Part shown: in pieces, positions 20,783 through 51,128 of the stretch
Layout of the letters: every line of letters begins with the position of its first letter
Position numbering within the stretch: the first letter of the stretch is position 1
From: an uncultured Dehalococcoidia bacterium
GTDB taxonomy: Bacteria; Chloroflexota; Dehalococcoidia; SZUA-161
Reading direction: 5' to 3'
Assembly (NCBI GenBank): GCA_964574685.1
Contig: CAZNOI010000004.1
Coordinates: 64,930-128,929, forward strand
Length of the DNA stretch: 64,000 nt
Translations under genes and position numbers: made by a program
Notes under the pieces: generated by a model
Seen by the model: the letters and a program-made list of their open reading frames with translations, nothing else
What the model was told of the DNA's origin: nothing
Database searches by the model: none

Positions 20783-20820
20783 CTTCTAGTCGGCCGTCTC
20801 TGTCGGTATCGTGGGAACCG

Positions 20821-21885
20821 TCAACTGGTCGACTTCGCGACCTCTCGCAGCTTCTTCACGAGTTCGGGGATCACCTTTTGCATGTCACCGACCACCATGA
20901 GGTCGGCCATACTGGATATGGGCGCCTTCTCGTCCGTGTTTATCGCGACCTTGAGCTGTGATCCCTTGATGCTTAGAGTGTGGTGGAAAGCACCGGAGAT
21001 GCCACACACGAGATAGAGCCTCGGCGCAATCGTCTTGCCGGTGAGGCCGATCCTGCGCTCGTCCGCCACCCATTTCTCATCGGTAGCACGCCGGCTGGCC
21101 CCGATGGAGGCCCCCAGCAGTCGGGCCAGTTCTTCCACGGCTTCGAGGTTCTCGGCGCTGCCCAGGCCCTTGCCGACTCCAATCACGACCTCTGCCTCGC
21201 TTGGGCAGACAGCGCACGGGTCTGCCTTCAGATAGTCGATCACCTTCGTCCTTGTCGACCGGGGTGAGATCGCTATCCTGGGCTCTATCAGGCAGGGTTC
21301 CTTCTCTTCTTTGGCCTTCTGCGTGGTGAGGGTCTGAGCGTCGATCGTAGCCACGAGCGGCTTTCGCAGTACAGGAGAGGTCGAGCTGGCGTTGCCGCCG
21401 TGAATGGACTTCCTGACGGACATGGATCTGTCCCTGGCAACCTCGATCTCGGTGTAGCACCCGGCGAAGGCGGCTCTCAGCCTGGCAGCGAGCCTCGGCG
21501 CCAGGTCGTTGCCGACAGTGGTCGCTGCAAACAGGACCACCGCCGGATTGCCTGCCCTTACGAGTTGGGCGAGGACGTCCGCGTACGCTTCCCCCGAGTA
21601 CTCGTATAGCTGACCATACTCGGCAACGAATGCATTATCGATTCCGTACGGGGCAAGACTGCCTGCGGTCTTCACGAGGTCGCCCCCTCCCACAAGCAGA
21701 GCGAAGGTAGTCCCACCGAGCTTGTCCGCCAGAGTCCTGGCCTCGGTGGCAAGCCTGAAGGCTGAGTCCTCCAGCTTGCCGTCCCTGTGCTCGGCAAAGA
21801 ACCAGACGTCGTTCCGAGCGTCCGAATCTGAGGCTTGGGCGGCTTTCCCCGTATCAGGGGCAGGGGCAGTGTCGCGTTCAGTCAT
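20821..21885 (-). CDS. etfA: Electron transfer flavoprotein alpha subunit, with ~28-aa N-terminal extension
   Basis: EtfA N-domain (VWFFAEHRDGKL...) and the C-terminal FAD-binding region (SIKGSQLKVAINTDEKAPI...MADLMVVGD). The weak Shine-Dalgarno sequence at the annotated ATG leaves the start uncertain. Confidence 0.85.
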   Translation of the reverse strand: MTERDTAPAPDTGKAAQASDSDARNDVWFFAEHRDGKLEDSAFRLATEARTLADKLGGTTFALLVGGGDLVKTAGSLAPYGIDNAFVAEYGQLYEYSGEAYADVLAQLVRAGNPAVVLFAATTVGNDLAPRLAARLRAAFAGCYTEIEVARDRSMSVRKSIHGGNASSTSPVLRKPLVATIDAQTLTTQKAKEEKEPCLIEPRIAISPRSTRTKVIDYLKADPCAVCPSEAEVVIGVGKGLGSAENLEAVEELARLLGASIGASRRATDEKWVADERRIGLTGKTIAPRLYLVCGISGAFHHTLSIKGSQLKVAINTDEKAPISSMADLMVVGDMQKVIPELVKKLREVAKSTS

Positions 21886-21948
21886 AACTCCGGCTTGCTA
21901 CACAGTGGCTGCCCCCGTCGAAGGAGATTGTTGGGCCAGCCGACGATA

Positions 21949-22030
21949 CAACAGGGACAGCCTGTCAACTACTCCATTCTAGACGACTTGGGCGCCTATG
22001 TCTATCGTAGCTCAAGGCTGTCCCTGTTGA
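21949..22030. repeat. Perfect 14-bp inverted repeat CAACAGGGACAGCC / GGCTGTCCCTGTTG separated by 54 nt, between the OYE-like gene stop and the etfA start
   Basis: Both arms read directly from the sequence, with an ACAGG-gacag-CCTGT sub-palindrome inside the left arm. Confidence 0.6.
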
Positions 22031-22048
22031 CCGCTATTCCATTTGGGA

Positions 22049-24052
22049 CTAGAGCAACCTCCCTATGAAGTGCCCGTCCCTGTTGGCGTCACCCATCTGG
22101 TGCGGGCAGCGGGCGTCGCCGATCTTGTATATCTCCTTCACCTTGCCCTGTAGTTCATTGTACAGGCTGTCGTTGGGTGTCTTGCCGCTGAGAAGCACCA
22201 CCGTGTCGACATCCGGGATCTCCCGCATTTCCATGCTGTGGATGTTGATCACGGTACAGGTCTTCTCGACGACCATGACCATGAAGGTCTGGGCATGTAC
22301 CCGAACACCCTTGTTGAGCATTCTCGGCATGACGTGGAACCAGGTCATGTCCTTGATCATGTCGATGCCACCATAGTTCGGATGTGGGGAGACCAGGTCA
22401 ACCTCCAGACCCTGGTCGGCCAGCATCTCGGCTAAAGCCGCGGCTGTCACGTCTCCCCTGGTGTCGAAGATGAGGGCCTTCTTGCCGAAGTCCTTGCCCT
22501 CGGCTATGCCCTTCACGATCTGATCGCCGGAGTAGACATGGTCCTGCTCCCAGCCGGTCACCTCCATCTGGCTGCCGCCGTTGTAACCGTTGCGCATCCA
22601 CGTTGACCCCGTTGCTATGACAACAGCATCGGGGTTCTGGTCGAGGATGGTCTGGGCGGTGGCTTCCGTACCGCTTATCGCCTTGACCCCAACCTGTGGC
22701 AACTGTATCTTCTGCCATCGGATGAGGCCGCCCATTTCCTCCCTGCCGGGCAACTGCTCGGCCAGCAGCGCCTGTCCGCCCAACTCTTCGGCCTTCTCGA
22801 AAAGGGTAACGTCATGTCCCTTCAGGGCGCACACGCGAGCGCACTCCATGCCCGCCGGTCCGCCGCCAACGATCACGACCTTCTTCTTCTGCGGGGCCTG
22901 CTTGTAGCCCCCAATGCCCCAGCCCCAGTGCTCCATACCGACTGTGGGGTTGGCGACGCATCGTATTGGGGCACCATCCATCATGAATTTGATGCAGTTC
23001 TGGTTACAGCCCTGGCAGGGACGGATGTCATCCAGCCGTCCCTCTCTTGCCTTGTTGGGCAACTCGGGGTCCGCGATAAGGGGTCTGGCCATGGCAATCA
23101 TGTCGGCCTTGCCCTCAGCAAGCGTGCTCTCCGCGATCATGGGGTCGTTGATCCTGCCGACTGCCACAATGGGTATGTTCTTGACGACTTCCTTGATCTG
23201 CTCAACGGCGTACATCTGATATGCCGGGGGCAGATACAGAGGGCCGAAGTACATATGCATGGACTGGGTCTCTCTACCGACGCCGCATATCAGCCAGTCG
23301 ACCTTTTTGTCCTGGTCAAGCAGCTTCGCGAGTTCGACGGCGTCCTCCGGGACAATGGAGCCGGGAAGCAGGTCGTCCACCGTGAGTGTGTAGCCGATGG
23401 CCATCTTGTCGCCGACCACCTTGCGCGCGACGTCGATGGACTCGAGGAGGAACTTGGCGCGCTTCTCCACTGTCCCGCCCCATTCGTCGGTACGGGAGTT
23501 GATCGTGGCCGAGAGGAAGTCTGCCACCAGGCCTGAGTGATTGTGGATATCTATGGCATCGACTCCGGCTTCCTTGAGATTCTCGCAGCAGATCGCCCAG
23601 TACTCGAAGAAGCGCTTGAAGTCCTCGTCGGTCATCTCCTCCCACATCTGGTCCCCGAAGTTCGGATCGGGCTTGACGGAGGGACCTCGCTTGTTTCCCA
23701 GACTCATACCCATGAACTGAAAGCTGCAATAGGCACCCTGCTCGTGGATGCCTTCGGCTATCCTCTTGAATCCGGGTACGATTTCCTTCTTCCAGGTCCA
23801 TATGTGCCTGTCGTAGTGGCCGCCGTTGTGCTTCATGAAGATGATGTCGCGTGGCTCCGTGTAGCCGACCGACATCCCCACCCAGCCTGCACCACCCTTC
23901 GCCTTCTCGATCTCATAGTGGATGAACTCATCTGTCGGTATCCCGTCATGGTTCATGAGCGGGCCATGCGGCGATACCATGATCCTGTTCTTGACCGTGA
24001 ACGGTCCTATCTGTATGGGAGTGAAGAGGTACTTGAACTGCTGGGCGCTCAT
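22049..24052 (-). CDS. Old-yellow-enzyme family FMN/FAD/[4Fe-4S] oxidoreductase (2,4-dienoyl-CoA reductase FadH-like / dienoyl-CoA:acceptor oxidoreductase-like)
   Basis: 667 aa with an N-terminal OYE TIM barrel, the CQGCNQNC iron-sulfur motif and a C-terminal FAD/NAD(P) Rossmann domain (VVIVGGGPAGMECA). Confidence 0.8.
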   Translation of the reverse strand: MSAQQFKYLFTPIQIGPFTVKNRIMVSPHGPLMNHDGIPTDEFIHYEIEKAKGGAGWVGMSVGYTEPRDIIFMKHNGGHYDRHIWTWKKEIVPGFKRIAEGIHEQGAYCSFQFMGMSLGNKRGPSVKPDPNFGDQMWEEMTDEDFKRFFEYWAICCENLKEAGVDAIDIHNHSGLVADFLSATINSRTDEWGGTVEKRAKFLLESIDVARKVVGDKMAIGYTLTVDDLLPGSIVPEDAVELAKLLDQDKKVDWLICGVGRETQSMHMYFGPLYLPPAYQMYAVEQIKEVVKNIPIVAVGRINDPMIAESTLAEGKADMIAMARPLIADPELPNKAREGRLDDIRPCQGCNQNCIKFMMDGAPIRCVANPTVGMEHWGWGIGGYKQAPQKKKVVIVGGGPAGMECARVCALKGHDVTLFEKAEELGGQALLAEQLPGREEMGGLIRWQKIQLPQVGVKAISGTEATAQTILDQNPDAVVIATGSTWMRNGYNGGSQMEVTGWEQDHVYSGDQIVKGIAEGKDFGKKALIFDTRGDVTAAALAEMLADQGLEVDLVSPHPNYGGIDMIKDMTWFHVMPRMLNKGVRVHAQTFMVMVVEKTCTVINIHSMEMREIPDVDTVVLLSGKTPNDSLYNELQGKVKEIYKIGDARCPHQMGDANRDGHFIGRLL

Positions 24053-32014: not shown

Positions 32015-32341
32015 TCACCATGAGTGTCGGATGGCGCCGGACGGGCATACTGTCACACACGGCAATTCAACCGGACCTGTTGTAGGCTTGCAGGGCGCGC
32101 AAACGTACTTCAGGTTCTTGCTGTGCTCTTCCCTGACGGTCACCACCATGTCACCATAGTCGTCCTCTATTACTTCGAGGACGTCCTGGGGACAGGCTTC
32201 GACGCACTTGCCGCAGCCGTCGCACTTGTCACTATCAAGGATTATGTAGTAGTCGCCGGAACCGTCGGTGTAGCCGTAGTTGGCAATGTACGACAGCGAC
32301 ACCATCAGCTTTCGTACCAGCCTATAGAGCATGAGTATCAC
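32015..32341 (-). CDS. 2x[4Fe-4S]-type ferredoxin, last gene of the BCR-like operon
   Basis: CDGCGKCVEACP and CAPCKP...CVTVCP cysteine clusters. The start may be the internal Met (MVSLSY...). Confidence 0.7.
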   Translation of the reverse strand: MILMLYRLVRKLMVSLSYIANYGYTDGSGDYYIILDSDKCDGCGKCVEACPQDVLEVIEDDYGDMVVTVREEHSKNLKYVCAPCKPTTGPVELPCVTVCPSGAIRHSW

Positions 32342-32353
32342 CGCACTCTCGTT

Positions 32354-33223
32354 CTACTTCCGCGACTTCAGCAGGAGGTCCTTCGCGAAGCAGGCAGCGC
32401 CAAGGGCACCTGCAATCTGCGCATCCGGCTTCAGGGGGATGGGATCCTCTATGCCGAGCTCCTTCAAGATTCGGCTCGTCACGCCGACGTTCTTGGAGAT
32501 GCCTCCTGTGATCGTGAAGTCCTTCTCGATGCCGATTCGCTCGAGGAGACCGACGACTCTGTGAGCCATCGCCGCGCAATAAGCTGCCAGCACCATGTTC
32601 TTGGTCCATCCACTGCGGAGCAGTCCAATGGCCTCTGACTTGGCGAAGATGACGCATGTGCTGCTGACCGGAGGAGGCTCTTCGGCTACGTCGAGGGACA
32701 TCTGCCCGACGTCCACAATCGGGATCTGGAGCAGCTCAGCCATGACCTCCATGCCACGGCCCGTACCGGCTGCGCACTTGTCATTCATCAGGAACTGGGT
32801 GACCTTGCCCTTCTCATCGCAGTGGATTCCCTTGAGGTCCTGGCCGCCCATATCCAGGATGGTCCTGATCGTGGGCCCGCCCATGAAGTTGGCGCCCCGT
32901 GCATGGCACGCGATCTCAGTTATGGCCTTTTTGGCCATAGGGATGTTGACCCTGCCGTATCCCGTGCCAACGATGAACTGGAGGTTCTCCTGCTTGATCT
33001 CGGTCTCGCCAAGGGCGATATTGAGGGCATTCGAAGCGCTGTCCGGGCTGTTGGACCCGGTTCGAGTATTGGAGTAGCAGTAGAGCTCGCCGTCCGCGAG
33101 AATCACCGCCTGGGAACTCACTGACCCGACGTCTATGCCGGCGACCAGTGTATCGGCCTTGCGCCAGTCGATGTCCGGGCTCTTCCAGGCGTACTCTGTC
33201 CACCTATAGTACTCAGTCGTCAT
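32354..33223 (-). CDS. BadF/BadG/BcrA/BcrD-type ATPase (HgdC-like activase), subunit 2 (BcrD/BzdP-like)
   Basis: ASKHA ATPase fold (LVAGIDVGSVSSQ) with both cluster-bridging Cys contexts (NDKCAAGTG and STCVIFAKSE). Confidence 0.8.
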   Translation of the reverse strand: MTTEYYRWTEYAWKSPDIDWRKADTLVAGIDVGSVSSQAVILADGELYCYSNTRTGSNSPDSASNALNIALGETEIKQENLQFIVGTGYGRVNIPMAKKAITEIACHARGANFMGGPTIRTILDMGGQDLKGIHCDEKGKVTQFLMNDKCAAGTGRGMEVMAELLQIPIVDVGQMSLDVAEEPPPVSSTCVIFAKSEAIGLLRSGWTKNMVLAAYCAAMAHRVVGLLERIGIEKDFTITGGISKNVGVTSRILKELGIEDPIPLKPDAQIAGALGAACFAKDLLLKSRK

Positions 33224-33244
33224 CTTTTCTCCCTCTCTACTCGG

Positions 33245-34009
33245 TTAAGCTGCCGCAGAAAGCGCGGCGCCCAGGGCACTGACGTATTGAGCGTTCTCGG
33301 GGATCAGGACGTCCGTGCCGAGGTGTTTCTTCATCACATCGACGATTGCTGCATTGTTAGCAACCCCGCCGATGAGAGCCACGTCATTCTGTACAGAAAG
33401 CCTTCGGACCATGGAAGAGACCCTGGATGCTATCGCATCGTGCACTGCGTGTGCTATGTCCGCCTTCGCGATCCCGGAGTGTATGAGCGATACAACCTCG
33501 GATTCTGCGAAGACCGCGCAGGTCGCGTTTATGGGAGCGTCCTGGGTGGACTTCAGCGACAGGTCGATCATCTCCGGGACCTTGATCTCGAGCGCTCTCG
33601 CCATGCTCTCTACGAAGGCTCCGGAACCGGCCGCGCACTTGTCGTTCTTGGCGAAGTCCAGCACCTTGCCCTGCTCGTCGGTGCTGATCCCACGGGCTTC
33701 CTCGGCACCAATATCTATGATTGTCCTGACGGAAGGATGGAGATGGGTGATGCCTCTGGCGTCGGCCGTTACCTCGGTAACTGTCTTGTTGGCCCAGGGG
33801 AGCGATTTGCGGCCCGCGCCGGTGGCGACGATTGCCTGCACGTCCTCGCTCTTGATACCGGCCTGATTCACTGCTTCCTTGTACAGCTTGTCAGCCGTTT
33901 CAACGGGCTCGAAGCCTGTGTAACCCACGGTGCGTGCCAGCACCTTGTCACCATCGAAGATGACAACCTTGATGGAGTGTGCTCCCATGTCTACGCCGGC
34001 AGATATCAT
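33245..34009 (-). CDS. BadF/BadG/BcrA/BcrD-type ATPase (HgdC-like activase), subunit 1 (BcrA/BzdQ-like)
   Basis: ASKHA fold (MISAGVDMGAHSIK) with the NDKCAAGSG and ATCAVFAESE Cys motifs. It is a paralog of, not identical to, the adjacent ATPase. Confidence 0.8.
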   Translation of the reverse strand: MISAGVDMGAHSIKVVIFDGDKVLARTVGYTGFEPVETADKLYKEAVNQAGIKSEDVQAIVATGAGRKSLPWANKTVTEVTADARGITHLHPSVRTIIDIGAEEARGISTDEQGKVLDFAKNDKCAAGSGAFVESMARALEIKVPEMIDLSLKSTQDAPINATCAVFAESEVVSLIHSGIAKADIAHAVHDAIASRVSSMVRRLSVQNDVALIGGVANNAAIVDVMKKHLGTDVLIPENAQYVSALGAALSAAA

Positions 34010-34046
34010 TTGGATCTCACCTCAATGTATTGTTAGGGGCCTTTCC

Positions 34047-35375
34047 CTAGACCGTCTCCACGAGCTTGGTTATGCCCTGACCTTCGAGGAATGCTTCCAG
34101 TCTGTCCAGAACTCCTGTCTCGTCGATGTCGCGGCAATCCGCGAAATTGCCCTCAAACATCGCGACAGGTATGCCGTGTGCCTGCATGTCTCTCTGGAAG
34201 TCATACATGTTCGTCGTCATGGGCACACAGCCGCGATTCAGAAGGAGCAGGTAGGAATTCGCCTGCCAGTGGTTGTACATGATGATGTACTCCTTCTTCC
34301 TCGTGTCCAGGTGCGACTGGAAGGGATGCTCGTAGCGCCATCTTGCCACCGTCCGGCAAAGATCCTCTCGTGTCTTCATCTCGGGCCAGCCGGGCCTCTC
34401 CTCGGGGACAGTGGCGGGTACGACCCTGTTCTCGTCGTAGAGGAACTTGACCTCACCGGAGTTAATCAGGTACACATACGTCCCTACGAACACCACTCCG
34501 AAATTCTCCAGATAGCGGAACACCTTGAGAAAGCTCCAGGGCGGCGGAGTGAGCATGCACATCCGATAGCGTTCGGTCGATACCGCCGCTATCTGGTTGT
34601 CGATGCGATCCTTCATCTCGTCCCTGAGTGCTGTCAGGAACCTCGTGCCTATCTCTTCGTGCCTCCTCAGCATCGATATGGGCATCAAGGCGAACATGCT
34701 CTTGATATCCAGTGGGGCCGGGATCGCTCCGTTGAGCAGGCATATCTCGCCCCACAGGGCCTCGTTGCGGAAGTAGTTCCGCATGGCGTTGATCGCCTTC
34801 TCATCATCGTACGTGCGTCCCGTGACTTTCTCCATCCATTCGATGGAGTCCATGTACTGTCCCGCGATGTAGTCAATGCGATGCTCATCATCCCCGGCCT
34901 CGGCGAGCATTGACTCGTCGTCGACATAGTTCATGGGCATGCCCTGATAGTCTGACACAATCTCGTGCCACTTGGGGTGCCCTGCCGGACAATGGCGCAC
35001 GCTCCAGGCGAAATCGAATTTGGGGAAGGATCCTCCTGTGAAGTAGTACTTGTCCAGATACATGGAGCCGAGGAAGTTGCGCATGTAGCCGCACATGTCG
35101 CGCGAGTACCCCTTGGCCTCGAAAGCCTCCATGCAGGGGATCGAGAACGGCGGGTCTGCGGCCACGCTCGCTCCGTAAGGTTCGCCCGCCAGGAACACGA
35201 AATCGCCCAGACCGGCGAGCATGCCGTATGGAGTTGCAGCACAGCCGAGGATCATGAGCTTGTCCTCTTCGTGGCCGGAGACCAGCTCCTGGTATGCCTC
35301 CAGCCTCAACTCCTTGCCCCACTGCCAGCAATCCAGGGGCTTGGTCTTGTACTTGTAGATGTCGGTCGTCGTCAT
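34047..35375 (-). CDS. 2-hydroxyacyl-CoA dehydratase / benzoyl-CoA reductase family large catalytic subunit (HgdA/BcrB-like)
   Basis: 442 aa of the PF06050 HGD-D type with a conserved Cys-containing core (RDMCGYMRNFLG). Its size matches BcrB/BzdO. Confidence 0.8.
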   Translation of the reverse strand: MTTTDIYKYKTKPLDCWQWGKELRLEAYQELVSGHEEDKLMILGCAATPYGMLAGLGDFVFLAGEPYGASVAADPPFSIPCMEAFEAKGYSRDMCGYMRNFLGSMYLDKYYFTGGSFPKFDFAWSVRHCPAGHPKWHEIVSDYQGMPMNYVDDESMLAEAGDDEHRIDYIAGQYMDSIEWMEKVTGRTYDDEKAINAMRNYFRNEALWGEICLLNGAIPAPLDIKSMFALMPISMLRRHEEIGTRFLTALRDEMKDRIDNQIAAVSTERYRMCMLTPPPWSFLKVFRYLENFGVVFVGTYVYLINSGEVKFLYDENRVVPATVPEERPGWPEMKTREDLCRTVARWRYEHPFQSHLDTRKKEYIIMYNHWQANSYLLLLNRGCVPMTTNMYDFQRDMQAHGIPVAMFEGNFADCRDIDETGVLDRLEAFLEGQGITKLVETV

Positions 35376-35420
35376 TGTTGAGATGCCTCCAGATGTATAT
35401 TGGGAAGAGTCAGAATCTGC

Positions 35421-36548
35421 TTAGAGTACCTCCAGTTCGGCCATCTCGATGAAGGCCTCTATTCGTGTTCGGAACTGGCCGAAGGGAACGGTCACGTCGA
35501 ATTCAAGGACCACCGTCGGTATGTCGTTCTCCTTAAACATCTCAACGAGCTTGGGGATATCGAACTCGTGAGGATCGCACCACTTCTGCTGATAGAGGAG
35601 GACACCCTGTACGTCCCACTCCTTGGCCATGTCCAGTATCCGCTGGAACCGGGCTCCGGGAGGTCGTCCTATAGCAGGGCACGGCCACCTTGTCACGTAC
35701 CGCTCTGCGATCGCAGCGACTCGATCATCCTGCGGCACGACTTCATCCCAGAAGTACCTGCTGCCGCTGCAGTGCTCGTCGGCGACAAAGGTGCAGTTGA
35801 GCTCCTCTACCTTGCGCACAAATGAGATGTCGGTCATCTCGCTGCCTACCATCATCAGGCGTACACCGACCTCGCGGTCCAGCTTGCGAGACGGCAGCTC
35901 CCGGAGCAGGTCGTCGAGCAGTTTGTTGTGCTCGGCGACGTCCATTATCTGCCCGGCTACCACCATCTCCATCGCTTCCGCGCCGGTAATGGGGGGCTCT
36001 TCCTGCTTGCGGAACTCGTACACCTGCTTCATCAGCCGACGTCGGGTGTTGTAGAGTTCTATGGCCTTGTCCAGATCGTCGTTGGAAAGCTTCTTTCCTG
36101 TGAGCTCCTCCAGGCCAGCGATGACGTCCCTGTACTCACCTGCGAGGCACGGCTGGGCCCGCTTGCTGTCCGTGTGACCCGGCATCCATATGTACTTCAT
36201 GTATGGGAGCGGCACATAGTTGCGCCAGTTGTCGTAGGTACCCTGAATATGCATGCACGTACGACCCATCATCAGGCCGTCCAGGTAGTCATATCTGCCC
36301 TTGAGCCCCTGCGCGAGCGTGTCACGGCAGAAAGGACACACTGTGGGAAACAGGTAGCGGTCCGTCATATCCTGGACCTCGTGTGAGCCGAGCACGCGTA
36401 CCGGCAGGATGCCGAAGGCGTAGAGCAGCTCTTCGGGGACGTAGGTGCAGAGCTCGCCAATTGCCTTGCCGCCGGTGCGTTGCTTCCAATCCTTGGCGTA
36501 CTGGTGTCGGTTCGCCAACACCTCCTGAAACTTCTCGATTGCGCCCAC
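35421..36548 (-). CDS. 2-hydroxyacyl-CoA dehydratase / benzoyl-CoA reductase family small catalytic subunit (HgdB/BcrC-like), GTG start
   Basis: 375 aa with the N-terminal ...AKDWKQRTGGKAIGELCTYVPEELLYAFGILPVRVLG typical of HgdB/HadC/BcrC. It is a paralog of the 58867 gene. Confidence 0.8.
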   Translation of the reverse strand: MGAIEKFQEVLANRHQYAKDWKQRTGGKAIGELCTYVPEELLYAFGILPVRVLGSHEVQDMTDRYLFPTVCPFCRDTLAQGLKGRYDYLDGLMMGRTCMHIQGTYDNWRNYVPLPYMKYIWMPGHTDSKRAQPCLAGEYRDVIAGLEELTGKKLSNDDLDKAIELYNTRRRLMKQVYEFRKQEEPPITGAEAMEMVVAGQIMDVAEHNKLLDDLLRELPSRKLDREVGVRLMMVGSEMTDISFVRKVEELNCTFVADEHCSGSRYFWDEVVPQDDRVAAIAERYVTRWPCPAIGRPPGARFQRILDMAKEWDVQGVLLYQQKWCDPHEFDIPKLVEMFKENDIPTVVLEFDVTVPFGQFRTRIEAFIEMAELEVL

Positions 36549-36580
36549 TAGTAGTTGCTCCTCCTTTTCTTCCTTGTCAT

Positions 36581-36629
36581 GAAGAGAGGCACTGTCAAGT
36601 CCGGCACTGGTCGACTGACATGCCTCTTC
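36581..36629. promoter_or_regulatory. Operator-like nested repeats upstream of the BCR-like operon (GGCACTG x2 direct; TGTCA-N18-TGACA; imperfect outer palindrome GAAGAG(AG)GCA/TGCCTCTTC)
   Basis: Read directly from the sequence, 33-80 nt upstream of the GTG start at 36548. Confidence 0.4.
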
Positions 36630-36885
36630 CTAGGTACATTCGCAAATGAGCATCTTCGGGCGACCCAAGTCTCCGTGCCTGCGTGCAACAGGCGAACAAC
36701 TGCGGGTGACAGCTTCCTCAAATCCAGTCTAGCGATGGCAAATAGGGCTGTCAAGCGCTAGCTTCGAAAATCGTCGGTGGTGGTGCATCCGTGCACGCCG
36801 CTCGGGTACGCGTGTCGGAGCGGCTTACGACGCGGGGGAGACTGCTGCGACGATTGGCACAGCCGAGTGCCACATCTGTTCGAAG

Positions 36886-39147: not shown

Positions 39148-39516
39148 CTAGTTCTCCACTCTTATCTCGACCACGCTCTGACGCGCTATGCTCCGCTCGT
39201 GGTCATCCTGACGGACCGTGACGTGCATAAGCCCCAACACCTCATAGTCTCCGTTCTCGAGACCCGAGGTGTCCCAGGTGACAGGAAAGTTGTTGGCCTT
39301 GTCGTCTGACTCCCCGATCTTGATCCAGGTGTCCGCGTGCGTAGCACGGTAGTACCACGGATTCGAGATCCGGACTATCGGCCCGGACAGGCCCAGAGCG
39401 GCCAACTCCCTCTGAAGCAGTTCCTCATCAAGGTTCTCACGCAGCTTCACGATGCCAGAGTACTTGGTCAACACTTCCGAAGGTACGATGAAATGGGGGC
39501 CCCAATCGTATGACAT
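39148..39516 (-). CDS. Hypothetical protein (122 aa), first gene of the small accessory insertion
   Basis: Intact ORF preceded by a 127-bp AT-richer intergenic region. No recognisable motifs. Confidence 0.5.
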   Translation of the reverse strand: MSYDWGPHFIVPSEVLTKYSGIVKLRENLDEELLQRELAALGLSGPIVRISNPWYYRATHADTWIKIGESDDKANNFPVTWDTSGLENGDYEVLGLMHVTVRQDDHERSIARQSVVEIRVEN

Positions 39517-39643
39517 GTGCGCCTCCTTCCCCTGAGAGCTCTACCTTACATATATACGACAGGCGCATTACGCTGTCATTGCAGCATTGTTACGTTGATG
39601 TGATATCTACGCCGTGGAGGTGGGGGAATGCCGGTGGGGGATG

Positions 39644-39898
39644 TCAATGCCGGTCGTGACTCTCTCGTATGGGCATCTCAAGGACCTCTTTCACGTCGTC
39701 GGCCTTGAACCTCCGGTCAGCCCTGGGGCCGATTCTGTAGGTCTTGATCAGACCCAGGTTGCTCCAGCGCCTTAGGGTACTCACGTGCACGTTCAGCATG
39801 CGGGCGGCCTGAGTCAACGTGAGCAGAGGCGAAGCCGTTGAACTGATCAACTCTTCGAGCCGCTCCTTGTCGTAAGGTCCTTTGTGTCGCACAGTCAC
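39644..39898 (-). CDS. Excisionase/MerR-type helix-turn-helix DNA-binding protein (HTH_17-like), GTG start
   Basis: LTLTQAARMLNVHVSTLRRWSNLGLI helix-turn-helix. The GTG start overlaps the stop of the upstream zinc-ribbon gene (GTGA). Confidence 0.6.
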   Translation of the reverse strand: MTVRHKGPYDKERLEELISSTASPLLTLTQAARMLNVHVSTLRRWSNLGLIKTYRIGPRADRRFKADDVKEVLEMPIRESHDRH

Positions 39899-40170
39899 GA
39901 GTTTTCCTCTTCCGTATCCGATTCAGGTTCCGCTAGCTCTTGGATCTGTCTTCCCCTGGCATGTGAATGCCGTTGCGTCTTCGACCCTATGGCCTTGTAT
40001 TCAATGTAGTTCTTGAACTCACACGTCAGCCCGCAATGCTTACAGACCCCCATGCTGACCGGGCCGTCGGCCTTTTCGATTATCCAGTGATGCCTGCAAG
40101 GCCTCTGCCGTGGCTTGGGCCTTGTTCCGGCATGCTTCCTTGCCTCGTTACCTGCCATGTCCAGCCTCAA
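39895..40170 (-). CDS. Small zinc-ribbon protein (CxHH-N14-CxxC)
   Basis: PCRHHW...GVCKHCG cysteine/histidine pattern; translationally coupled to the HTH gene. Confidence 0.45.
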   Translation of the reverse strand: MRLDMAGNEARKHAGTRPKPRQRPCRHHWIIEKADGPVSMGVCKHCGLTCEFKNYIEYKAIGSKTQRHSHARGRQIQELAEPESDTEEENS

Positions 40171-40306
40171 CTTGATAATACCTCCCGGCTCTGTTATAGG
40201 GTGTGACTTTTGTCACTGCGGTCGCCGAAACAGAGATACCGGCAGTGGTGGTAGAGACGGACGATACGCGCCGGATCGATAGGGGATGAAGAAGCGCGGG
40301 GGCTGA

Positions 40307-41335
40307 CTAGGCTTCTACCACTTCAATGGCCTCCTGGAGCACAAGCGGTGCCTTCCAGGGGGCTTCGTCGATATCGGTGATCTCGGCCACGCGACGCAGA
40401 AAACGTCTCAGGCTTATGTTGCCGAAGTGAGCCTCGAAAGCCGGTATCCCCCCACGAGAGGATTGGTCTTCCGGGAGTAATTCGTGCGCCGCGAGCAAAT
40501 CGAGACCTCGCTCACAGACATCGGCGTTGAGGGCGCAGGTAGAATACGCGTCGGGAAAGCAGATGCGGAGGCATGTGGCGAAGGTGTGAGCCCGCTCCCA
40601 CAGAGATGGTAGTTCGCCGGACAGGTCATCCGACTGGTAGGCCTCCGGCACGTGTCTGGGCTCTAGCGCGTTCAGCAGGCGTATCATCCGGCGCGGGTTG
40701 CCATCCGAGGCCGCGAGGAGCATGTTGATGTTGGGCTTTCGGAGTTGCAGCCGTTCCAGGCAATCCGAGTACGCTCCCAGAAGTCGGCTTTGGCTGATGG
40801 GAGGCATGTCGAATTGCTTCAGTACCAGGCGGTCGAGATACTGCCTGCCATAGGCCGCGATCGCCAACATGCCGAAGAACGACGAAATGGAGTGCTCGAG
40901 GTATGCCCTGTTACCGGCAAACACCGGAACGCACCTGTCTCGTACGGCGGGCTCTGTGCATACGTCAATGGCTGCAACAAGGTCAGCGGGAAGACATTGG
41001 TCCAGCTCGTCGACAAGCAGGAAGAGGCCCTTCTCTGCCGCTGACTCCTGGACGCGCTCGATCTTGCCCTTGAAGTGCCGCCGAACAGCCTCCGAATCAG
41101 CGCGGTTGCGTGCCGCCTGATTCGCGGATATCGCAACCACTGCCGCATCCAGCGCCTGCAGTTCCTCCGCCATGAAGTTCAGGAAGCAGGTCTTGCCTGT
41201 GCCGGCCGCGCCGAATACCGCCGCCGCGAACTGCTCGTTTGGAGCCGTGGCAATGGCCTGGGCGAAGGCCCTGGCGTGCGGAGCGAAGCCGAACAGGTCT
41301 TCCGCGCACGCCCTCTTTGGCCTGTCCTGAATCAT
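40307..41335 (-). CDS. KAP-family-like P-loop NTPase (compact, no TM insert)
   Basis: N-terminal DLFGF..ARAFAQAI followed by Walker A GAAGTGKT, Walker B LLVDELD and an NPRRMIRLLN motif resembling the KAP NPR..KR..N signature. Confidence 0.6.
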   Translation of the reverse strand: MIQDRPKRACAEDLFGFAPHARAFAQAIATAPNEQFAAAVFGAAGTGKTCFLNFMAEELQALDAAVVAISANQAARNRADSEAVRRHFKGKIERVQESAAEKGLFLLVDELDQCLPADLVAAIDVCTEPAVRDRCVPVFAGNRAYLEHSISSFFGMLAIAAYGRQYLDRLVLKQFDMPPISQSRLLGAYSDCLERLQLRKPNINMLLAASDGNPRRMIRLLNALEPRHVPEAYQSDDLSGELPSLWERAHTFATCLRICFPDAYSTCALNADVCERGLDLLAAHELLPEDQSSRGGIPAFEAHFGNISLRRFLRRVAEITDIDEAPWKAPLVLQEAIEVVEA

Positions 41336-43805: not shown

Positions 43806-45596
43806 ATGACAGGTCACACGAAGCTAGGCAAGCTGAGTGACATCGGAGAGTTCATCAAGAACGGCAGTTTCGTCGCCATCGGAGGCGGCTGGAGTTGCAA
43901 CAAGCCCATGGCCATTGTGAGGGAGATCATCAGGCAGAAGATAGCCGACCTCAAGGTGATGTCCATCACGGGCGGGTGGGAGATGGAGTGGCTGCTGGCG
44001 GCTGGCGCAGTGGATCATCTGGTCTTCAGTTTCCTGAGCCTGGAAGCATTCGGATTACCTCCCAACTTCCGGCGTGTAGCGCAGGGCAGCCTTATCAAGC
44101 TCACCGAGATCGAAGGCTGCAGCATGATCAAGGGGCTGCAGGCAGCCGGTCGCGGCCTGCCGTTCGCCGCCTTTGCCGGCCCGCGAGGGTCGGACATAGT
44201 AGCGGAGGCGCCTGACCTCTACAAAACCGTCACATGTCCCTTCACGGGGAACGAGTTGACCGCGATCCAGGCCATCGCGCCGGACGTCGCCATCATCCAT
44301 GCGCAGAAGGCAGATGAGCGGGGCAATATCGAGCTGATAGGAACCTCGGCTTCTGATCTGGATATGGCGATGGCAGCAAAGTCCGTAGTCGTAACAGTCG
44401 AGGAGATAGTCTCGGCTGATAAGATCCGTGCAGAGAAGACAGCGACGCAGGTATTCCGGCCGGAGGTATCGCTTGTCATTCCCCAGCCGCTCGGCGCAAC
44501 TCCGTGTAGCTGCGTGCCCTACTACGCGCCTCACCTCACACAGATGATGAAGGACCTCCAGGGCATCGGAAGCCCCAAGACGGCGGGCGACTACATACCG
44601 GGCCTGATTGGGAAGAGCGAAGAGGAGTACCTGAACAATGTCGGTGGAGAGGACACCAGGAAGAAGCTCGCGAGCCTGGCGAAGAACACGAAGCGTGTCA
44701 GTATGCCGGCTTCCCGGACCGAGGAGCCTGCAACCGACTTCGATCAGTCGGCACAGATGGTTGCCAGCCTCGCCCGGACTGTAGACGATGGGGACTCGAT
44801 CATACTCGGGTCTTTCACTCCGCTGGCCTACGCCGCCTACATGCTCGCGAAGCTGACGCACGCCCCCAATGCCTTCGTGGTCGGATACAGCGGCGTCGAT
44901 CCGCTGCCTTTTCAGCTTAGCTTCCATTCATCGGAGGCGGCCTGCACGGAGTTCGCGGCAGGCCTCTGGTCGATGACCGAGTGCATCGAAGCCCTTCACC
45001 TGCGAGGGATGGGCGACGTTGAGGCTGTATCCAGCGCTCAGTTGGACGCCAACGGCGACATCAACATATCATGGCTGGCAACGCCGGTGAAGGACGCGGA
45101 AGGCAATCCAACCGGTGAGATGAATCCCAGGGGACTGAGGCTGCCGGGCGGCGCCGGCGCGCCGGTCGTCTACGGCCTGCACCGCAAGAGTGTTGCTTAC
45201 TTCGCGGCACACTCGAAGCAGGTCTTCGTTCCAAAGGTCAACTACATAACCGGCACACGCTACTACTTCACCGACGAGGAGAGGAAGGCACAGGGACTGC
45301 GGCCCGGGCCGATGACAGTCGTGACCAATCTCTGCGTCATGCAGATGGTTGAGCGAGGGAAGTGGAAGGTGCTCTCGCTGCACAGGGGCGCAACCGCGGA
45401 CGACGTCAGGAACAATACAGGCTTCGAAGTGGACGTGCCCGCGGACTGCCCGACCACGAAGCCTCCCACGAAACAGGAGCTGGAGCTGATCGAGCTGATA
45501 GACCCGCAGGGCATCAGGTTCCTGGACTTCATGAGCGGCAAAGAGCGGGCCGGCAAGCTTCCTTCAATCATACAGGCCGAGTGGGACGCGGCCTAG
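43806..45596 (+). CDS. Family I CoA-transferase with fused A and B subunits (glutaconate CoA-transferase GctA/GctB-like)
   Basis: 596 aa whose N-half resembles GctA (KLGKLSDIGEFIKNGSFVAIGG) and whose C-half resembles GctB. Confidence 0.8.
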   Translation: MTGHTKLGKLSDIGEFIKNGSFVAIGGGWSCNKPMAIVREIIRQKIADLKVMSITGGWEMEWLLAAGAVDHLVFSFLSLEAFGLPPNFRRVAQGSLIKLTEIEGCSMIKGLQAAGRGLPFAAFAGPRGSDIVAEAPDLYKTVTCPFTGNELTAIQAIAPDVAIIHAQKADERGNIELIGTSASDLDMAMAAKSVVVTVEEIVSADKIRAEKTATQVFRPEVSLVIPQPLGATPCSCVPYYAPHLTQMMKDLQGIGSPKTAGDYIPGLIGKSEEEYLNNVGGEDTRKKLASLAKNTKRVSMPASRTEEPATDFDQSAQMVASLARTVDDGDSIILGSFTPLAYAAYMLAKLTHAPNAFVVGYSGVDPLPFQLSFHSSEAACTEFAAGLWSMTECIEALHLRGMGDVEAVSSAQLDANGDINISWLATPVKDAEGNPTGEMNPRGLRLPGGAGAPVVYGLHRKSVAYFAAHSKQVFVPKVNYITGTRYYFTDEERKAQGLRPGPMTVVTNLCVMQMVERGKWKVLSLHRGATADDVRNNTGFEVDVPADCPTTKPPTKQELELIELIDPQGIRFLDFMSGKERAGKLPSIIQAEWDAA

Positions 45597-45633
45597 CGGC
45601 CTGCAATCGATAGAACCTCATTGAGGAGGCACT

Positions 45634-46428
45634 ATGGCATACAAGGTCTTCAAGGTAGAGAAGAAGGAAGGCAATATCGCTGTAATCACTTTCAATCGCC
45701 CGGACAAGTTCAATGCGGCCAATGACCAGATATTCAGAGAGCTGGCGGCGGCAGTAGAGGAGTTGGATGCCGACAAGGAAGTCGGCTGCATAATTCTGAC
45801 CGGGCAGACGTTCACACATCCCAAGAAGGGCACACCATACCCGGTGTTCTCAGCGGGTGCTGATGTGGAACAGTTCGCGGCGGTGGGCCAGACCGAGGCA
45901 GGCTTCGAGTTCATCAAGCTATGCTTCATGCCCTTCAAGGCGATTGAGCTCGCCGAGACGCCCATCATAGCGGCGGTTAACGGTTCGGCGTTCGGCTTCG
46001 GTTTCGAGATCGCCGGGTGCTGCGATATGTCGTTTGCATCCAGGAGCGCGAAGTTCGCGCTGAAGGAGATCAATCACGGTGCGGTGCCCGCCTGGACGAT
46101 TACCCGGGGGCTGGAGAAGTACGGAAAGGCCGTTGTGGCCTATCTCTGCCTATCGGCGAATGAGATAGAGCCCGAGGAAGCGAAACGCCTCGGCATCGTG
46201 ATAGACGTGTATGAGGATGCCGAGCTCCTTCCCAAGTGTGAAGAACTCGCCAGGAGGATCGCTGCAAACAGCTACATGGCCAAGACGTTCATCAAGACCA
46301 CGCTCAACCGGCGTGCCATCGAGGAATACCAGGATGCCGAGCGATTCATGCCCTCCGTCTTCGCAACGCAGTTCATGCAGGGGGCTTTCGCACGGTTCCT
46401 GAAGGGCGATACGCGAGGCAAGCAGTAA
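45634..46428 (+). CDS. Enoyl-CoA hydratase/isomerase (crotonase) family protein
   Basis: ITFNRPDKFNA... oxyanion-hole region with both catalytic Glu positions present. Confidence 0.85.
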   Translation: MAYKVFKVEKKEGNIAVITFNRPDKFNAANDQIFRELAAAVEELDADKEVGCIILTGQTFTHPKKGTPYPVFSAGADVEQFAAVGQTEAGFEFIKLCFMPFKAIELAETPIIAAVNGSAFGFGFEIAGCCDMSFASRSAKFALKEINHGAVPAWTITRGLEKYGKAVVAYLCLSANEIEPEEAKRLGIVIDVYEDAELLPKCEELARRIAANSYMAKTFIKTTLNRRAIEEYQDAERFMPSVFATQFMQGAFARFLKGDTRGKQ

Positions 46429-46487
46429 AAAGCCCCGTCCTTCTGTGAGTGCGCCGCTGCCTGGAAGGCTACTAAGGAGGAGACTGA

Positions 46488-48194
46488 ATGTTCGACGACA
46501 AGACCGTGGAAGCATGCCGGAAGATGATGGAGAAGCACGATGAGCTAATCCAGACCCGCTATCAGGGCAAGGATTTCTCTTCTGCTACCGGATCATCAGA
46601 GATACCTGTGAAGCCTTTCTATACCCCTGCCGACATCGAAGACGTCGATTTCGAGAAGGACATCGGGCTTCCAGGACAGTATCCGTATACTCGAAGCAAC
46701 TACCCCATCCACTATCAGTTCCAGCCCTGGATAAACCAGCCGGTTCACGGCTACGGGCTACCGGAGCACACCCGTGAGAGGATGGACATGCTGGCGAAGG
46801 CCGGTATGGAGGGCTACTTCGGTGGCAGGGCATACAACCTTGTCTGGGACGTGCCAACCTACTTCGGCGTCGATCCCGACGAGCCGGATGCTCAGGGCTA
46901 CCAGGGAAAGGACGGGGTCTGTTGCGTTACCGATGAGGACTTCGGGCGGATGCTCCATGACATCGACCTTTCCAAGACCAACATAGTGCTCATCAACGGC
47001 GATACACTGCCCATTCTAGCCCACTACATCGCCTACGCGGAGAGCCAGGGGGTGCCTCGCGACCAGCTTCGCGGCAACACCATGAACTGGGAGTTCACTG
47101 CGTGGTACGCACCCAACTTCCTCTGGGAGACGGAGGGGGCGCTGAAGCTCGCGACGGACTTGATTCACTTCTGCAGCAACGAGATGCCGAAGTGGAACCA
47201 CACGAACATCCAGGGGCACGGAATCTCGGAGACTGGGGCCGATGCAGTTCACCAGATGGCCTACTCGATAGCCTGTGCGCGCGCTGTGGCCGATTCCTGT
47301 GTGAAGGCGGGCATTGAGCCGGACGCATTCCTGCCTGGCATAGGGTTCCAGATTGCCCAGGGCAACGATTTCTTCGAGTACATCTGCATGTTCCGAGCCT
47401 GGCGAAAGCTCTGGGCCACGGTATGCCGCGAGCGGTTCGGGGCGAAGAAGCCGTCGTCTATGCAACTCAGGACGCACACTCATACGTCATGCTTCGAGCT
47501 GACGAAGCAGCAACCACTCGTCAATCTGATTCGGAGCGCCTACCATGCCCTCGGTGCTGCGCTTTCCGGGACGACCGCGATGGAGATTCCGGGGTACGAT
47601 GAGCCCATCGGCATCCCGACGGAGGAGTCCGCTGTGCTCGCTCTTCGGATCCAGCAGGTGCTCCGGCACGAGACGGGTATAACCAAGGTCGGCGACCCGC
47701 TGGCCGGGTCCTACTATGTGGAGTGGCTGACCAAGAGGATGGAGGAAGAGGGCGCGGCGATACTGAAGGAGATTGACGATGCCGGCGGATTCGTCAAGGC
47801 GCACAAGAGCGGTATGCTCATCAGCAACCTCCGCAAGAGGGCGAACGAGTGGCGGAAGAAGGTGGACAGCGGCGAGCTGACCATCGTCGGCTGGAACAAG
47901 TACATCGTGGAGGAGGAAGAGCCTATCCAGGCTTTCAAGCCGGACCCGGAGGTGGGCAGGATTGCGGCCGAGCGCATCAAAGAGTACAGGGCAAGACGAG
48001 ACCAGGCCAAGACGGACGCTGCGTTGAACGCTCTGGTGGCCGCAGCCGAGAAGCTGGACAAAGGCGAGTACGGGAACGTGATGCCCGCATGTGTCGAGGC
48101 TGCCAAGGCAAAGGCGACGGCCGGTGAGATCTCGAAGGCACTGCGCAAGGTGTTCAAGTGGGGGCCCGAGTACAGCGTCTCGCTGCCGCACTAG
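46488..48194 (+). CDS. B12-dependent acyl-CoA mutase large (substrate-binding) subunit, split HcmA/IcmA type
   Basis: 568-aa methylmalonyl-CoA-mutase-like TIM-barrel domain lacking its own B12 domain. The sizes match the split IcmA/HcmA + IcmB/HcmB architecture. Confidence 0.85.
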   Translation: MFDDKTVEACRKMMEKHDELIQTRYQGKDFSSATGSSEIPVKPFYTPADIEDVDFEKDIGLPGQYPYTRSNYPIHYQFQPWINQPVHGYGLPEHTRERMDMLAKAGMEGYFGGRAYNLVWDVPTYFGVDPDEPDAQGYQGKDGVCCVTDEDFGRMLHDIDLSKTNIVLINGDTLPILAHYIAYAESQGVPRDQLRGNTMNWEFTAWYAPNFLWETEGALKLATDLIHFCSNEMPKWNHTNIQGHGISETGADAVHQMAYSIACARAVADSCVKAGIEPDAFLPGIGFQIAQGNDFFEYICMFRAWRKLWATVCRERFGAKKPSSMQLRTHTHTSCFELTKQQPLVNLIRSAYHALGAALSGTTAMEIPGYDEPIGIPTEESAVLALRIQQVLRHETGITKVGDPLAGSYYVEWLTKRMEEEGAAILKEIDDAGGFVKAHKSGMLISNLRKRANEWRKKVDSGELTIVGWNKYIVEEEEPIQAFKPDPEVGRIAAERIKEYRARRDQAKTDAALNALVAAAEKLDKGEYGNVMPACVEAAKAKATAGEISKALRKVFKWGPEYSVSLPH

Positions 48195-48232
48195 GCCCGG
48201 CCCAATCCGAGCTACTTAGGAGGTAATGACAA

Positions 48233-48631
48233 TTGAGTTCGAACGACAAGCCCAAGGTATTGCTCGTCAAGCACTGGATGGAGATTCACGATCGGGGCGT
48301 GAAGAGCGTCGTCGCGAGGTTGAGGGACGCCGGCTTCGAGGTCATATACATGGTGTACATGCGCCCCGAGGAAATCGTGGCCGCCGCACAGCAGGAGGAC
48401 GCCAAGGTCATCGGAATGAGCTTCTCCACGGGAGCGTATGATGCTCACGTGCCCGAGGTAATGCGTCTGCTGAAGGAAAAGGGCATGGGCGACGTGACCG
48501 TAGTGCTGGGCGGCCTGATTCCCGACGAGGATGTGCCTAGTCTGAAGGCACAGGGAGTCAAGGAGGTCTTCGGAGCCGGCTCAAACCTTGACGAGTTGAT
48601 CGATCTTCTGAGCGCGATTCCGGCGGGCTAG
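48233..48631 (+). CDS. Acyl-CoA mutase small subunit, B12-binding domain
   Basis: 132 aa with a ...EIHDRG... variant of the DxHxxG cobalamin His-ligand motif and a Rossmann-like fold. Confidence 0.8.
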   Translation: MSSNDKPKVLLVKHWMEIHDRGVKSVVARLRDAGFEVIYMVYMRPEEIVAAAQQEDAKVIGMSFSTGAYDAHVPEVMRLLKEKGMGDVTVVLGGLIPDEDVPSLKAQGVKEVFGAGSNLDELIDLLSAIPAG

Positions 48632-48676
48632 AGCCATCGCTTGTGGCTCAGGCCCAATCCATATAGGGAGGAGAAC

Positions 48677-49477: not shown

Positions 49478-49506
49478 TGTCAGGACGAGCTGAAGCATTA
49501 GGAGAA

Positions 49507-49534
49507 GGGGCCTCGACGAGGCCCCTTCTCGTTT
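49507..49534. terminator. Bidirectional intrinsic terminator GGGGCCTC-gac-GAGGCCCC + TTCTCGTTT between convergent operons
   Basis: GC hairpin flanked by T-tract on the plus strand and A-rich/GAGAA on the other side; lies between the crotonase stop and the abfD-like stop. Confidence 0.55.
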
Positions 49535-49554
49535 GACGCGGAACTGGTTCCAGG

Positions 49555-51063: not shown

Positions 51064-51128
51064 TCCGTCTTCCTGCCTTTCCAGCTCCCCCGCCGATTTC
51101 CGTTTGGCCCCAAGCCCTTACACGGGGC

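Follow-up and report, generated by a model that had tools for sequence, protein, structure and literature searches.

To our knowledge, class I aryl-coenzyme A (CoA) reductases are the only enzymes that use ATP to drive electrons below the normal biological redox window, a Birch-like chemistry, and the only substrates that we know for them are benzoyl-CoA, methylbenzoyl-CoA and tetrahydronaphthoyl-CoA. Here, we describe a five-gene operon from an uncultured Dehalococcoidia bacterium (contig CAZNOI010000004.1) that resembles the genes for one type of these enzymes, the Bzd type. The DNA analysed is a 64-kb stretch, called the window below; profile, repeat and open reading frame (ORF) results refer to it unless stated otherwise. 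The operon probably encodes a Bzd-type, ATP-dependent, ferredoxin-fed radical reductase whose substrate is most likely something other than benzoyl-CoA, because the catalytic subunit, O, belongs to a distinct clade with a rebuilt acyl pocket.

What are the closest described systems? First, BzdNOPQ(M), the benzoyl-CoA reductase (BCR) of the Azoarcus/Aromatoleum type within class I (PDB 8S02; Fuchs et al. 2025, PMC11971306), has the same N-O-P-Q-ferredoxin gene order. The two systems also share the double-cubane cysteines of N and the arginine and histidine residues around them, the catalytic residues and CoA channel of O, a Q that scores above the cut-off for its family, and a closely similar O fold. 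They differ in that the window's O is only 36% identical to BzdO and falls in a separate clade, its pocket residues are replaced, and both N and O score below the cut-offs for their families. Moreover, the window operon is surrounded by housekeeping genes: none of dch, had, oah, a benzoate-CoA ligase gene or a regulator gene adjoins it. Second, the tetrahydronaphthoyl-CoA reductase (Thn) is also a Bzd-type, four-subunit, ATP-dependent enzyme with a linked ferredoxin, a likeness drawn by description only, but its genes lie within a 22-gene beta-oxidation-like operon (PMC12016498). The substrate of Thn is a CoA ester, but not benzoyl-CoA, which sets a precedent for substrate diversification in the Bzd type (PMC12016498). 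Third, the MbdONQP/BcrCBAD-type class I reductases (PDB 9G87, 9GAI) share the superfamily and the enzymatic logic, but they are permanent heterotetramers with larger A-type ATPases, and MbdO is far more distant from the window's O (E = 1e-5, 17% identity).

Two further relatives lie outside the reductases. (R)-2-hydroxyisocaproyl-CoA dehydratase (HAD), made up of HadBC and its activator HadI (PDB 3O3M, 4EHT), shares the superfamily and fold, an open-site [4Fe-4S] cluster with a conserved glutamate, and an ATPase with the same two cluster cysteines. Unlike the window operon, with its two distinct ATPase genes, it has one homodimeric activator; its beta subunit has a [4Fe-5S] remnant in place of a double cubane, and the window proteins score two to three times lower against its profile models than against the Bzd models. 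The double-cubane cluster protein (DCCP) is a homodimer with six cysteine ligands for an [8Fe-9S] cluster in each subunit, whereas N and O of the window form a heterodimer type in which O has only three cluster cysteines plus Cys45. The DCCP model NF040772 gives 179 and 30 bits, well under its cut-off of 350.

Architecture of the operon

The operon consists of five ORFs in the order bzdN-O-P-Q-ferredoxin, with intergenic gaps of 45, 37, 21 and 12 nt. A strong Shine-Dalgarno sequence precedes the first gene, and its GGAGGAGCA is kept across aligned relatives. The features are as follows.

36558 to 36566, minus strand: Shine-Dalgarno sequence AAGGAGGAG, read from the sequence, 9 nt ahead of the GTG start of N
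35421 to 36548, minus strand: N, BzdN-like electron-transfer subunit, 375 aa, GTG start, HGD-D (Pfam)
34047 to 35375, minus strand: O, BzdO-like catalytic subunit with an altered acyl pocket, 442 aa, HGD-D (Pfam)
33245 to 34009, minus strand: P, ATPase in the BzdP position, half of a putative heterodimeric electron activator, 254 aa, BcrAD_BadFG (Pfam)
32354 to 33223, minus strand: Q, BzdQ ATPase, 289 aa, BcrAD_BadFG (Pfam)
32015 to 32341, minus strand: BzdM-like ferredoxin, 2x[4Fe-4S], 108 aa from a GTG start, Fer4, Fer4_9 and Fer4_7 (Pfam)

An earlier reading of the letters and ORFs of this DNA (the sequence-only reading) had proposed such a five-gene operon, with two non-identical HgdC-type ATPases and a 2x[4Fe-4S] ferredoxin. 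All five ORFs lie on the minus strand where it placed them, and the Pfam families agree with its assignments. P and Q each carry both cluster-bridging cysteine motifs (DKC125AAG and TC164A in P, DKC150AAG and TC190V in Q) and are only 36.6% identical, and therefore they are not recent duplicates of one HgdC. No further BcrAD_BadFG-type ATPase is encoded in the 64-kb window. The ferredoxin has its eight cysteines in two motifs, CxxCxxCxxxC (cysteines 40, 43, 46 and 50) and CxxCx10CxxxC (81, 84, 95 and 99).

The electron-transfer subunit N retains all seven family cysteines (C36, 73, 76, 100, 263, 293 and 327 in CIB numbering), along with Arg53, Arg267, Arg290, His330, Ser239 and Gln324 around the double cubane. 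The residues surrounding the [8Fe-9S] double cubane of BzdN are named in the paper on the BzdNO structure (PMC11971306), and N is predicted from this match to hold the same cluster. Judged by their sequences, then, the electron-delivery components look canonical.

Placement within the Bzd family

Placement of the subunits draws on hidden Markov model scores, PDB searches and clustering of 119 O homologues by the unweighted pair group method with arithmetic mean (UPGMA). With the NCBIfam models, N scores 393.8 bits for bzdN (TIGR03190), 183.4 for HadC and 141 for BcrC, and O scores 297.4 bits for bzdO (TIGR03191), 107.7 for HadB and 32 for BcrB. Both fall short of the bzd equivalog cut-offs (453.8 bits for bzdN and 448.6 for bzdO), and both are far from the cut-offs of HadC (700 bits) and HadB (750 bits). 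Q exceeds the bzdQ equivalog cut-off (TIGR03192; 420.9 vs 380.2 bits), and P matches the acyl-CoA dehydratase activase model TIGR00241 at 221.6 bits.

Solved structures give a similar picture. The best match for N is BzdN (8s02_B, E = 1e-112), with 45% identity to the Aromatoleum protein, and the best match for O is BzdO of Aromatoleum sp. CIB (8s02_A, E = 4e-81), with 36% identity. P has HadI as its best solved relative (190 bits); the PDB contains no BzdP structure. An AlphaFold2 (AF2) model of O (pLDDT 83, pTM 0.87) superimposes on BzdO (8s02) with template-modelling (TM) scores of 0.90–0.92, compared with 0.77–0.85 for HadB, 0.77 for MbdO and 0.65 for DCCP.

The gene order N-O-P-Q-ferredoxin recurs in >20 canonical loci from Dehalococcoidales, Anaerolineae, Gemmatimonadota and Desulfobacterales (L041, L051, L053, L060, L065 and L072–L088 in our set). 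Orthologues of P (48–53% identical) and Q (55–70% identical) hold the P and Q positions of these loci, and ferredoxin orthologues (47–82% identical) are found at the matching position in both clade and canonical loci. From the profile scores of N, O and Q, together with the shared gene order, the bzdNOPQ-plus-ferredoxin reading is therefore the correct one: at the level of sequence, this is the architecture of the operon, and not that of a 2-hydroxyacyl-CoA dehydratase.

Could the operon nevertheless encode a redox-neutral radical dehydratase that has a heterodimeric activator, or could P and Q serve mainly to activate a second, HAD-like pair of HGD-D proteins located at 58867–61228? We regard this as quite improbable. 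The resemblance of P to HadI speaks for it, as does the C-V-P-M that follows the third cluster cysteine of O and ends in methionine, like the C-K-L-M of HadB. On the other hand, the Bzd models outscore the Had models for both N (394 vs 183 bits) and O (297 vs 108 bits), so that placement among dehydratases and their activators, which the sequence-only reading had named as grounds for abandoning a BCR, is not what we find. In addition, O keeps His131, which is alanine in HadB (PMC11971306), N has the full set of double-cubane cysteines that HAD beta subunits lack, and a dedicated ferredoxin with two ATPases in stoichiometric operon order would suit a net reductase. The bearing of the second HGD-D pair is considered with the rest of the window.

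A rebuilt acyl pocket in the O subunit

The functional residues and contacts of BzdO used here are those of the BzdNO crystal structure (PDB 8S02, PMC11971306). O keeps the three cysteines of the aqua-[4Fe-4S] cluster (Cys95, Cys128 and Cys380), the acid/base pair Glu65/His131, and Tyr97. The segments of the CoA channel are likewise common to the window's clade and canonical BzdO: W16, K20, R23, Y27, G64–S70 (GEPYGAS), D220, K222, P275–W277 (PPW) and F283–E287 (FRYLE). Thus, the catalytic centre and the CoA channel are retained.

The acyl pocket is different. Of the benzoyl-thioester contacts (Trp46, Tyr97, Gln274, Tyr298, Leu302 and Leu383), Tyr97 alone is retained. In BzdO, the thioester oxygen has three hydrogen-bond donors (PMC11971306); two of these, Gln274 and Tyr298, are proline and valine here. 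Leu302, which sandwiches the benzoyl ring in BzdO (PMC11971306), is asparagine; Trp46 is alanine; and Glu381-Gly382-Leu383, the first two of which are cluster-adjacent, are Val-Pro-Met. Ser44, which in BzdO lies 3.6–4 Å from C3 of the ring (PMC11971306), is replaced beside the open iron site by a cysteine (Cys45). By the alignment and the model, the acyl pocket has been rebuilt, with enlargement through the change of Trp46 to alanine and the gain of Cys45 and Asn305. Because Cys45 aligns with Cys36 of BzdN, we also considered that O might have retained a double cubane; we rejected this, since Pro, Val and Gly-Glu-Pro, and no cysteines, occupy the remaining ligand positions.

Eight positions stringently discriminate the clade: Y228M, Q274P, S296T, Y298V, L302N, E389D, L392R and M408F. 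Of the eight, three contact the substrate directly and a further two are next to such contacts. A further 109 columns are conserved in both groups of O proteins.

These replacements bear on an alternative, that the operon encodes a bona fide BCR and the clade binds benzoyl-CoA through other pocket residues. Several observations are in its favour: the genes and their order match bzdNOPQM, Q scores above the BzdQ cut-off, O retains its catalytic Cys, Glu and His residues together with the CoA channel, and class I BCRs are known from Chloroflexi (PMC5736913). Existing annotation is divided, with JGI labelling relatives “benzoyl-CoA reductase subunit B” while PGAP labels the relative in a complete genome “2-hydroxyacyl-CoA dehydratase”. 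We nonetheless consider a plain BCR unlikely. Two of the three thioester hydrogen-bond donors, Leu302 and Trp46 are replaced, and N and O miss equivalog cut-offs that canonical Dehalococcoidales proteins pass. For example, at the canonical, GAW-type locus of a complete Dehalococcoidales genome (L081), used as a control, BzdN and BzdO score 481.7 and 528.7 bits. The flanks of that locus encode a CoA ligase, Had (465 vs a cut-off of 339 bits) and Oah (479 vs 464 bits), whereas had, oah and dch were not found in the 64-kb window. The proposal of a class I BCR architecture in the sequence-only reading therefore holds for the mechanism class but does not extend to a substrate assignment, N and O missing their cut-offs and the pocket being replaced. 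That reading was right to leave the substrate open, and the cut-off failures and pocket losses take the point further.

A distinct and conserved clade

UPGMA clustering of the 119 O homologues gives two main groups, one of ~90 sequences that includes Aromatoleum BzdO and one of 28 that includes the window's O. Every member of the smaller group has the signature C-A-A…P-V-N…[V/P]-x-M, whereas canonical loci have G/S-A-W…Q-Y-L…E-G-L/T. Among Chloroflexota, further variants of the pocket (GTE, SAN, SGD, GEY and others) occur commonly, and nearly all of them retain Tyr298, Leu302 and Glu381. As the sequences group, then, the window's O is a member of a separate Dehalococcoidia clade rather than a case of phylogenetic drift. 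The nearest public locus is in an uncultured Dehalococcoidia metagenome-assembled genome (MAG) whose O protein is 93% identical, and a 50%-identity library of 1.84 billion representatives contains only two full-length ones with 50% or more identity to the window's O. Chloroflexi have previously been reported to carry class I BCR genes (PMC5736913, PMC10570749); beyond such general reports, we found no description in the literature of this clade or of an expansion of Bzd paralogues in Dehalococcoidia.

The operon lies between the divergent ribF-tyrS and glyA-rpsF-ssb-rpsR genes in 15 further Dehalococcoidia species, and this synteny suggests vertical inheritance. Across these species, mean identity to the window proteins is 84.9% for Q, 84.3% for O, 72.4% for P, 72.3% for N and 69.9% for the ferredoxin, compared with 68.6% for TyrS, 66.0% for GlyA, 59.3% for RpsF and 58.9% for RibF. 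O and Q are thus more conserved than the neighbouring housekeeping proteins, and are therefore under tighter constraint. P and Q are co-inherited with the clade's N and O in all 15 species.

A separate observation concerns Bzd-type O genes more widely. In some Chloroflexota they are strongly expanded, with >10 loci in one MAG; the expansion is seen at L037, L038, L043, L052, L057 and L065 and in the MAGs BS2bin.63 and NC_groundwater_1423. The genes form N-O-O and N-O-O-O arrays in which each O has its own pocket signature (GTE, SAN, SGD, SAT, GEY, DSGH and others). This pattern suggests that the O proteins could be interchangeable substrate-binding subunits on common N/P/Q machinery.

Gene neighbourhoods of the relatives

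Members of the clade occur in several settings. First, there are orphan O genes (L008/L025, L018 and L020) that are 82% identical to the window's O, have the same pocket, and stand without N, P or Q. The neighbours of the orphan at L008 encode acyl-CoA dehydrogenases, SCP-x-type thiolases with DUF35 partners, CoA-transferases and an enoyl-CoA hydratase, and the MAG that bears it also has the core operon (L012). Second, a paralogous N-O subclade, 58% identical and with the same pocket signature, is part of a conserved cluster in five MAGs (including L005, L031, L034 and L035). This cluster comprises Rrf2, N, O, CysK, CysE, cystathionine gamma-synthase/lyase (MetB), a ThrC-like gene, NIL, AIRS, a BzdQ-like ATPase, MOSC, a ferredoxin, NifS and NifU; the ATPase has 343 aa and a Cys-rich insertion. 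Third, a 52%-identical member in a Chloroflexota MAG (JBHOXT010000012.1; L007, 1–10866) has the order N, ferredoxin, O, followed by an aldehyde:ferredoxin oxidoreductase (AFOR)-family protein, an HdrD/TfrB-like CCG protein and a 1033-aa HdrA-like protein, the ORF of which contains an in-frame stop. The stop is a TGA within a CSM*IL motif and is probably a selenocysteine codon; a second ORF, next in line, is likewise interrupted by a stop in frame. The genes glyA and then rpsF follow the Hdr-like genes, and no ATPase was found within 10 kb downstream. It is a possibility that a Bzd-type catalytic module is driven here by an Hdr-like bifurcating system in place of ATP. Finally, one complete genome has a clade N-O pair without an adjacent ATPase.

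We considered the neighbourhood as a clue to the substrate and rejected it: the contexts differ by subclade (housekeeping, cysteine/methionine metabolism with Fe-S assembly, AFOR with Hdr-like genes, and beta-oxidation), and neighbourhood therefore does not identify the substrate. The same contexts do raise the question of whether the substrate is a CoA ester at all. A non-CoA substrate (a sulfur compound, for instance), with a role in biosynthesis or housekeeping, would be in keeping with the setting of the 58% subclade, with the position of the window operon among glyA, hom and thrC and its greater conservation than those genes, and with the presence of Cys45 in place of Ser44 next to the open iron site. 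This explanation is very unlikely in our view, given that the clade conserves the CoA-channel residues and that the orphan paralogues sit within CoA-ester beta-oxidation clusters; moreover, gene neighbourhood alone is weak evidence.

A conserved hairpin in the leader

Two predicted features lie upstream of N:

36571 to 36638, minus strand: conserved leader hairpin, from alignment of orthologous leaders
36726 to 36754, minus strand: promoter-like site TTGACA-17-TAGACT, predicted by a consensus scan with 10/12 matches

The hairpin reads AGAGGC-N-TGTCGG…CCGACA-TA-GCCTCT, followed by ATTCTTGG, and lies between the promoter-like site and the ribosome-binding site. At 16 other loci, a conserved copy of it lies upstream of the orthologous operon. 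RNAalifold finds 16 pairs, four of which have changes on both sides, and 93.3% of the alignment cells are paired, compared with 36–50% when the partners are slid. A covariance model places exactly one hairpin upstream of N at each of 17 loci, of which four were not in the seed alignment, and detects no other copy in 826 kb, a total that takes in the remainder of the window. Rfam offers no credible match to the leader, the sole one being a chance HIV-1_SD match (E = 4.5).

The sequence-only reading had described nested operator-like repeats at 36581–36629 in the promoter region. The repeats are real and are the arms of the hairpin, but they lie downstream of the promoter-like site, and a leader hairpin fits them better than an operator. 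By themselves the repeats are too short for significance, and the element emerged only once orthologous leaders were aligned: a repeat search of 36500–36800 returned nothing notable within 36581–36629, and all that it gave was a direct repeat of 8 nt (TTGACAG) and an inverted repeat further upstream. A larger, riboswitch-like fold of the leader was considered and rejected, because the whole 176-nt leader folds no better than shuffled sequences (z = 0); the hairpin alone is supported. The hairpin could stabilise the mRNA, act as an attenuator or bind a protein.

Other features of the window

According to the sequence-only reading, nothing near the operon points to aromatic catabolism. Strictly, this is correct: Dch, Had and Oah models matched none of the window's proteins, enoyl-CoA hydratases and dehydrogenases included, and no linked benzoate-CoA ligase or regulator gene adjoins the operon. 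The same statement overlooked a cluster of CoA-ester genes at 43.8–63.7 kb. Its first part (43806–54242) encodes a fused CoA-transferase, two enoyl-CoA hydratases, an HpaB/4-hydroxybutyryl-CoA-dehydratase-family protein, a methylmalonyl-CoA-mutase-like large subunit with a B12-binding subunit, a 3-hydroxyacyl-CoA dehydrogenase, a short-chain dehydrogenase/reductase and a D-2-hydroxyacid dehydrogenase. Its second part (55136–63700, plus strand) includes the other HGD-D pair:

55136 to 57214, plus strand: fused PorA/PorB-like 2-oxoacid:ferredoxin oxidoreductase
57224 to 58864, plus strand: acyl-CoA ligase
58867 to 59967, plus strand: N2, 366 aa
59975 to 61228, plus strand: O2, 417 aa, closest to HadB (205 bits; PDB E = 6e-54)

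Two acyl-CoA dehydrogenase genes follow. N2 and O2 have no ATPase of their own, and P and Q, 23 kb away, are the sole candidate activator in the window. These facts return us to the notion, judged quite improbable above, that P and Q mainly activate N2/O2. It gains from the HadB-like alpha subunit of a pair that lacks an ATPase, from the location of that pair amid genes for a D-2-hydroxyacid dehydrogenase, a CoA ligase, a 2-oxoacid:ferredoxin oxidoreductase and acyl-CoA dehydrogenases, and from the prediction that BZD-type ATPase and catalytic modules associate only transiently (PMC11971306). The co-inheritance of P and Q with the clade's N and O in 15 species argues against it.

Elsewhere in the window, 19895–24052 (minus strand) encodes a 667-aa Fe-S flavoenzyme of the old yellow enzyme (OYE)/FadH type, followed by EtfA- and EtfB-like genes; the best match of the flavoenzyme is a mycofactocin-system FadH/OYE 2 model, under the cut-off. 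OYE-family reductases adjoin class I BCR-like genes in naphthalene degraders (PMC12016498). An island at 39148–41335 (minus strand), between tyrS and an EF-G-like gene, contains genes for a KAP-family P-loop NTPase and a MerR/HTH_17 protein together with two small family-less ORFs, and is also present in the closest relative (L002). A 494-aa ORF without a Pfam or NCBIfam match (4460–5944, minus strand) has a MacB/FtsX-like permease on one side and an ABC ATPase on the other. A TIGR03960-family B12-binding radical SAM protein (7538–9430, plus strand; 756.8 bits) and a geranylgeranyl-reductase-family protein (12702–13925, plus strand) look ordinary.

Functional implications

What might the operon do? 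By analogy with BzdNOPQ, its cofactor content, electron path, reductase chemistry and CoA-ester type of substrate can be proposed as follows. The 2x[4Fe-4S] ferredoxin would pass electrons to a [4Fe-4S] cluster that bridges the P/Q ATPase heterodimer, and ATP hydrolysis would lower the potential of that cluster. From P/Q, electrons would move to the double cubane of N and on to the water-bearing [4Fe-4S] cluster of O, where Glu65 and His131 would aid the transfer of hydrogen atoms and protons to the bound CoA thioester.

Several points weigh against a Bzd-type reductase with a substrate other than benzoyl-CoA. The clade is known from sequence comparison and models, the residue mapping uses a 36%-identity alignment and an AF2 model, and a single Bzd-type structure serves as the reference for what is canonical. 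The clade may bind benzoyl-CoA in another mode, and other residues, such as Asn305, Tyr300 or Tyr302, might restore thioester binding. Genes for the downstream pathway could lie outside the 64-kb window. Lastly, the cysteine/methionine and Fe-S assembly setting of the 58% subclade is not obviously one of CoA-ester catabolism. With these points taken into account, the Bzd-type reductase acting on a substrate other than benzoyl-CoA is still the explanation that we favour.

A broader and much more tentative proposal is that, in one Dehalococcoidia lineage, N, P, Q and the ferredoxin form a core, vertically inherited electron-activating hub, at a fixed position among housekeeping genes and with its own leader RNA; that the resident O and exchangeable orphan O proteins, with their rebuilt pockets and new active-site cysteine, would carry out a low-potential reduction of non-benzoyl CoA esters that has not yet been described; and that P and Q may also activate N2/O2. 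Examples could be the esters of acids from recalcitrant organic matter, whether bulky and alicyclic or aromatic and substituted.

At present, this clade's genes are read as “benzoyl-CoA reductase” or “2-hydroxyacyl-CoA dehydratase” and are counted as signs that Dehalococcoidia degrade aromatic compounds anaerobically. In view of the pocket signature, the inference of aromatic degradation from these genes seems unsafe. A 16-position signature (G/S-A-W…Q-Y-L…E-G-L in canonical proteins vs C-A-A…P-V-N…V-P-M in the clade) separates the two groups. With the electron machinery and the Glu/His/[4Fe-4S]-OH2 site apparently kept and the pocket apparently rebuilt, the clade is a defined candidate for ATP-dependent reduction of a new kind.

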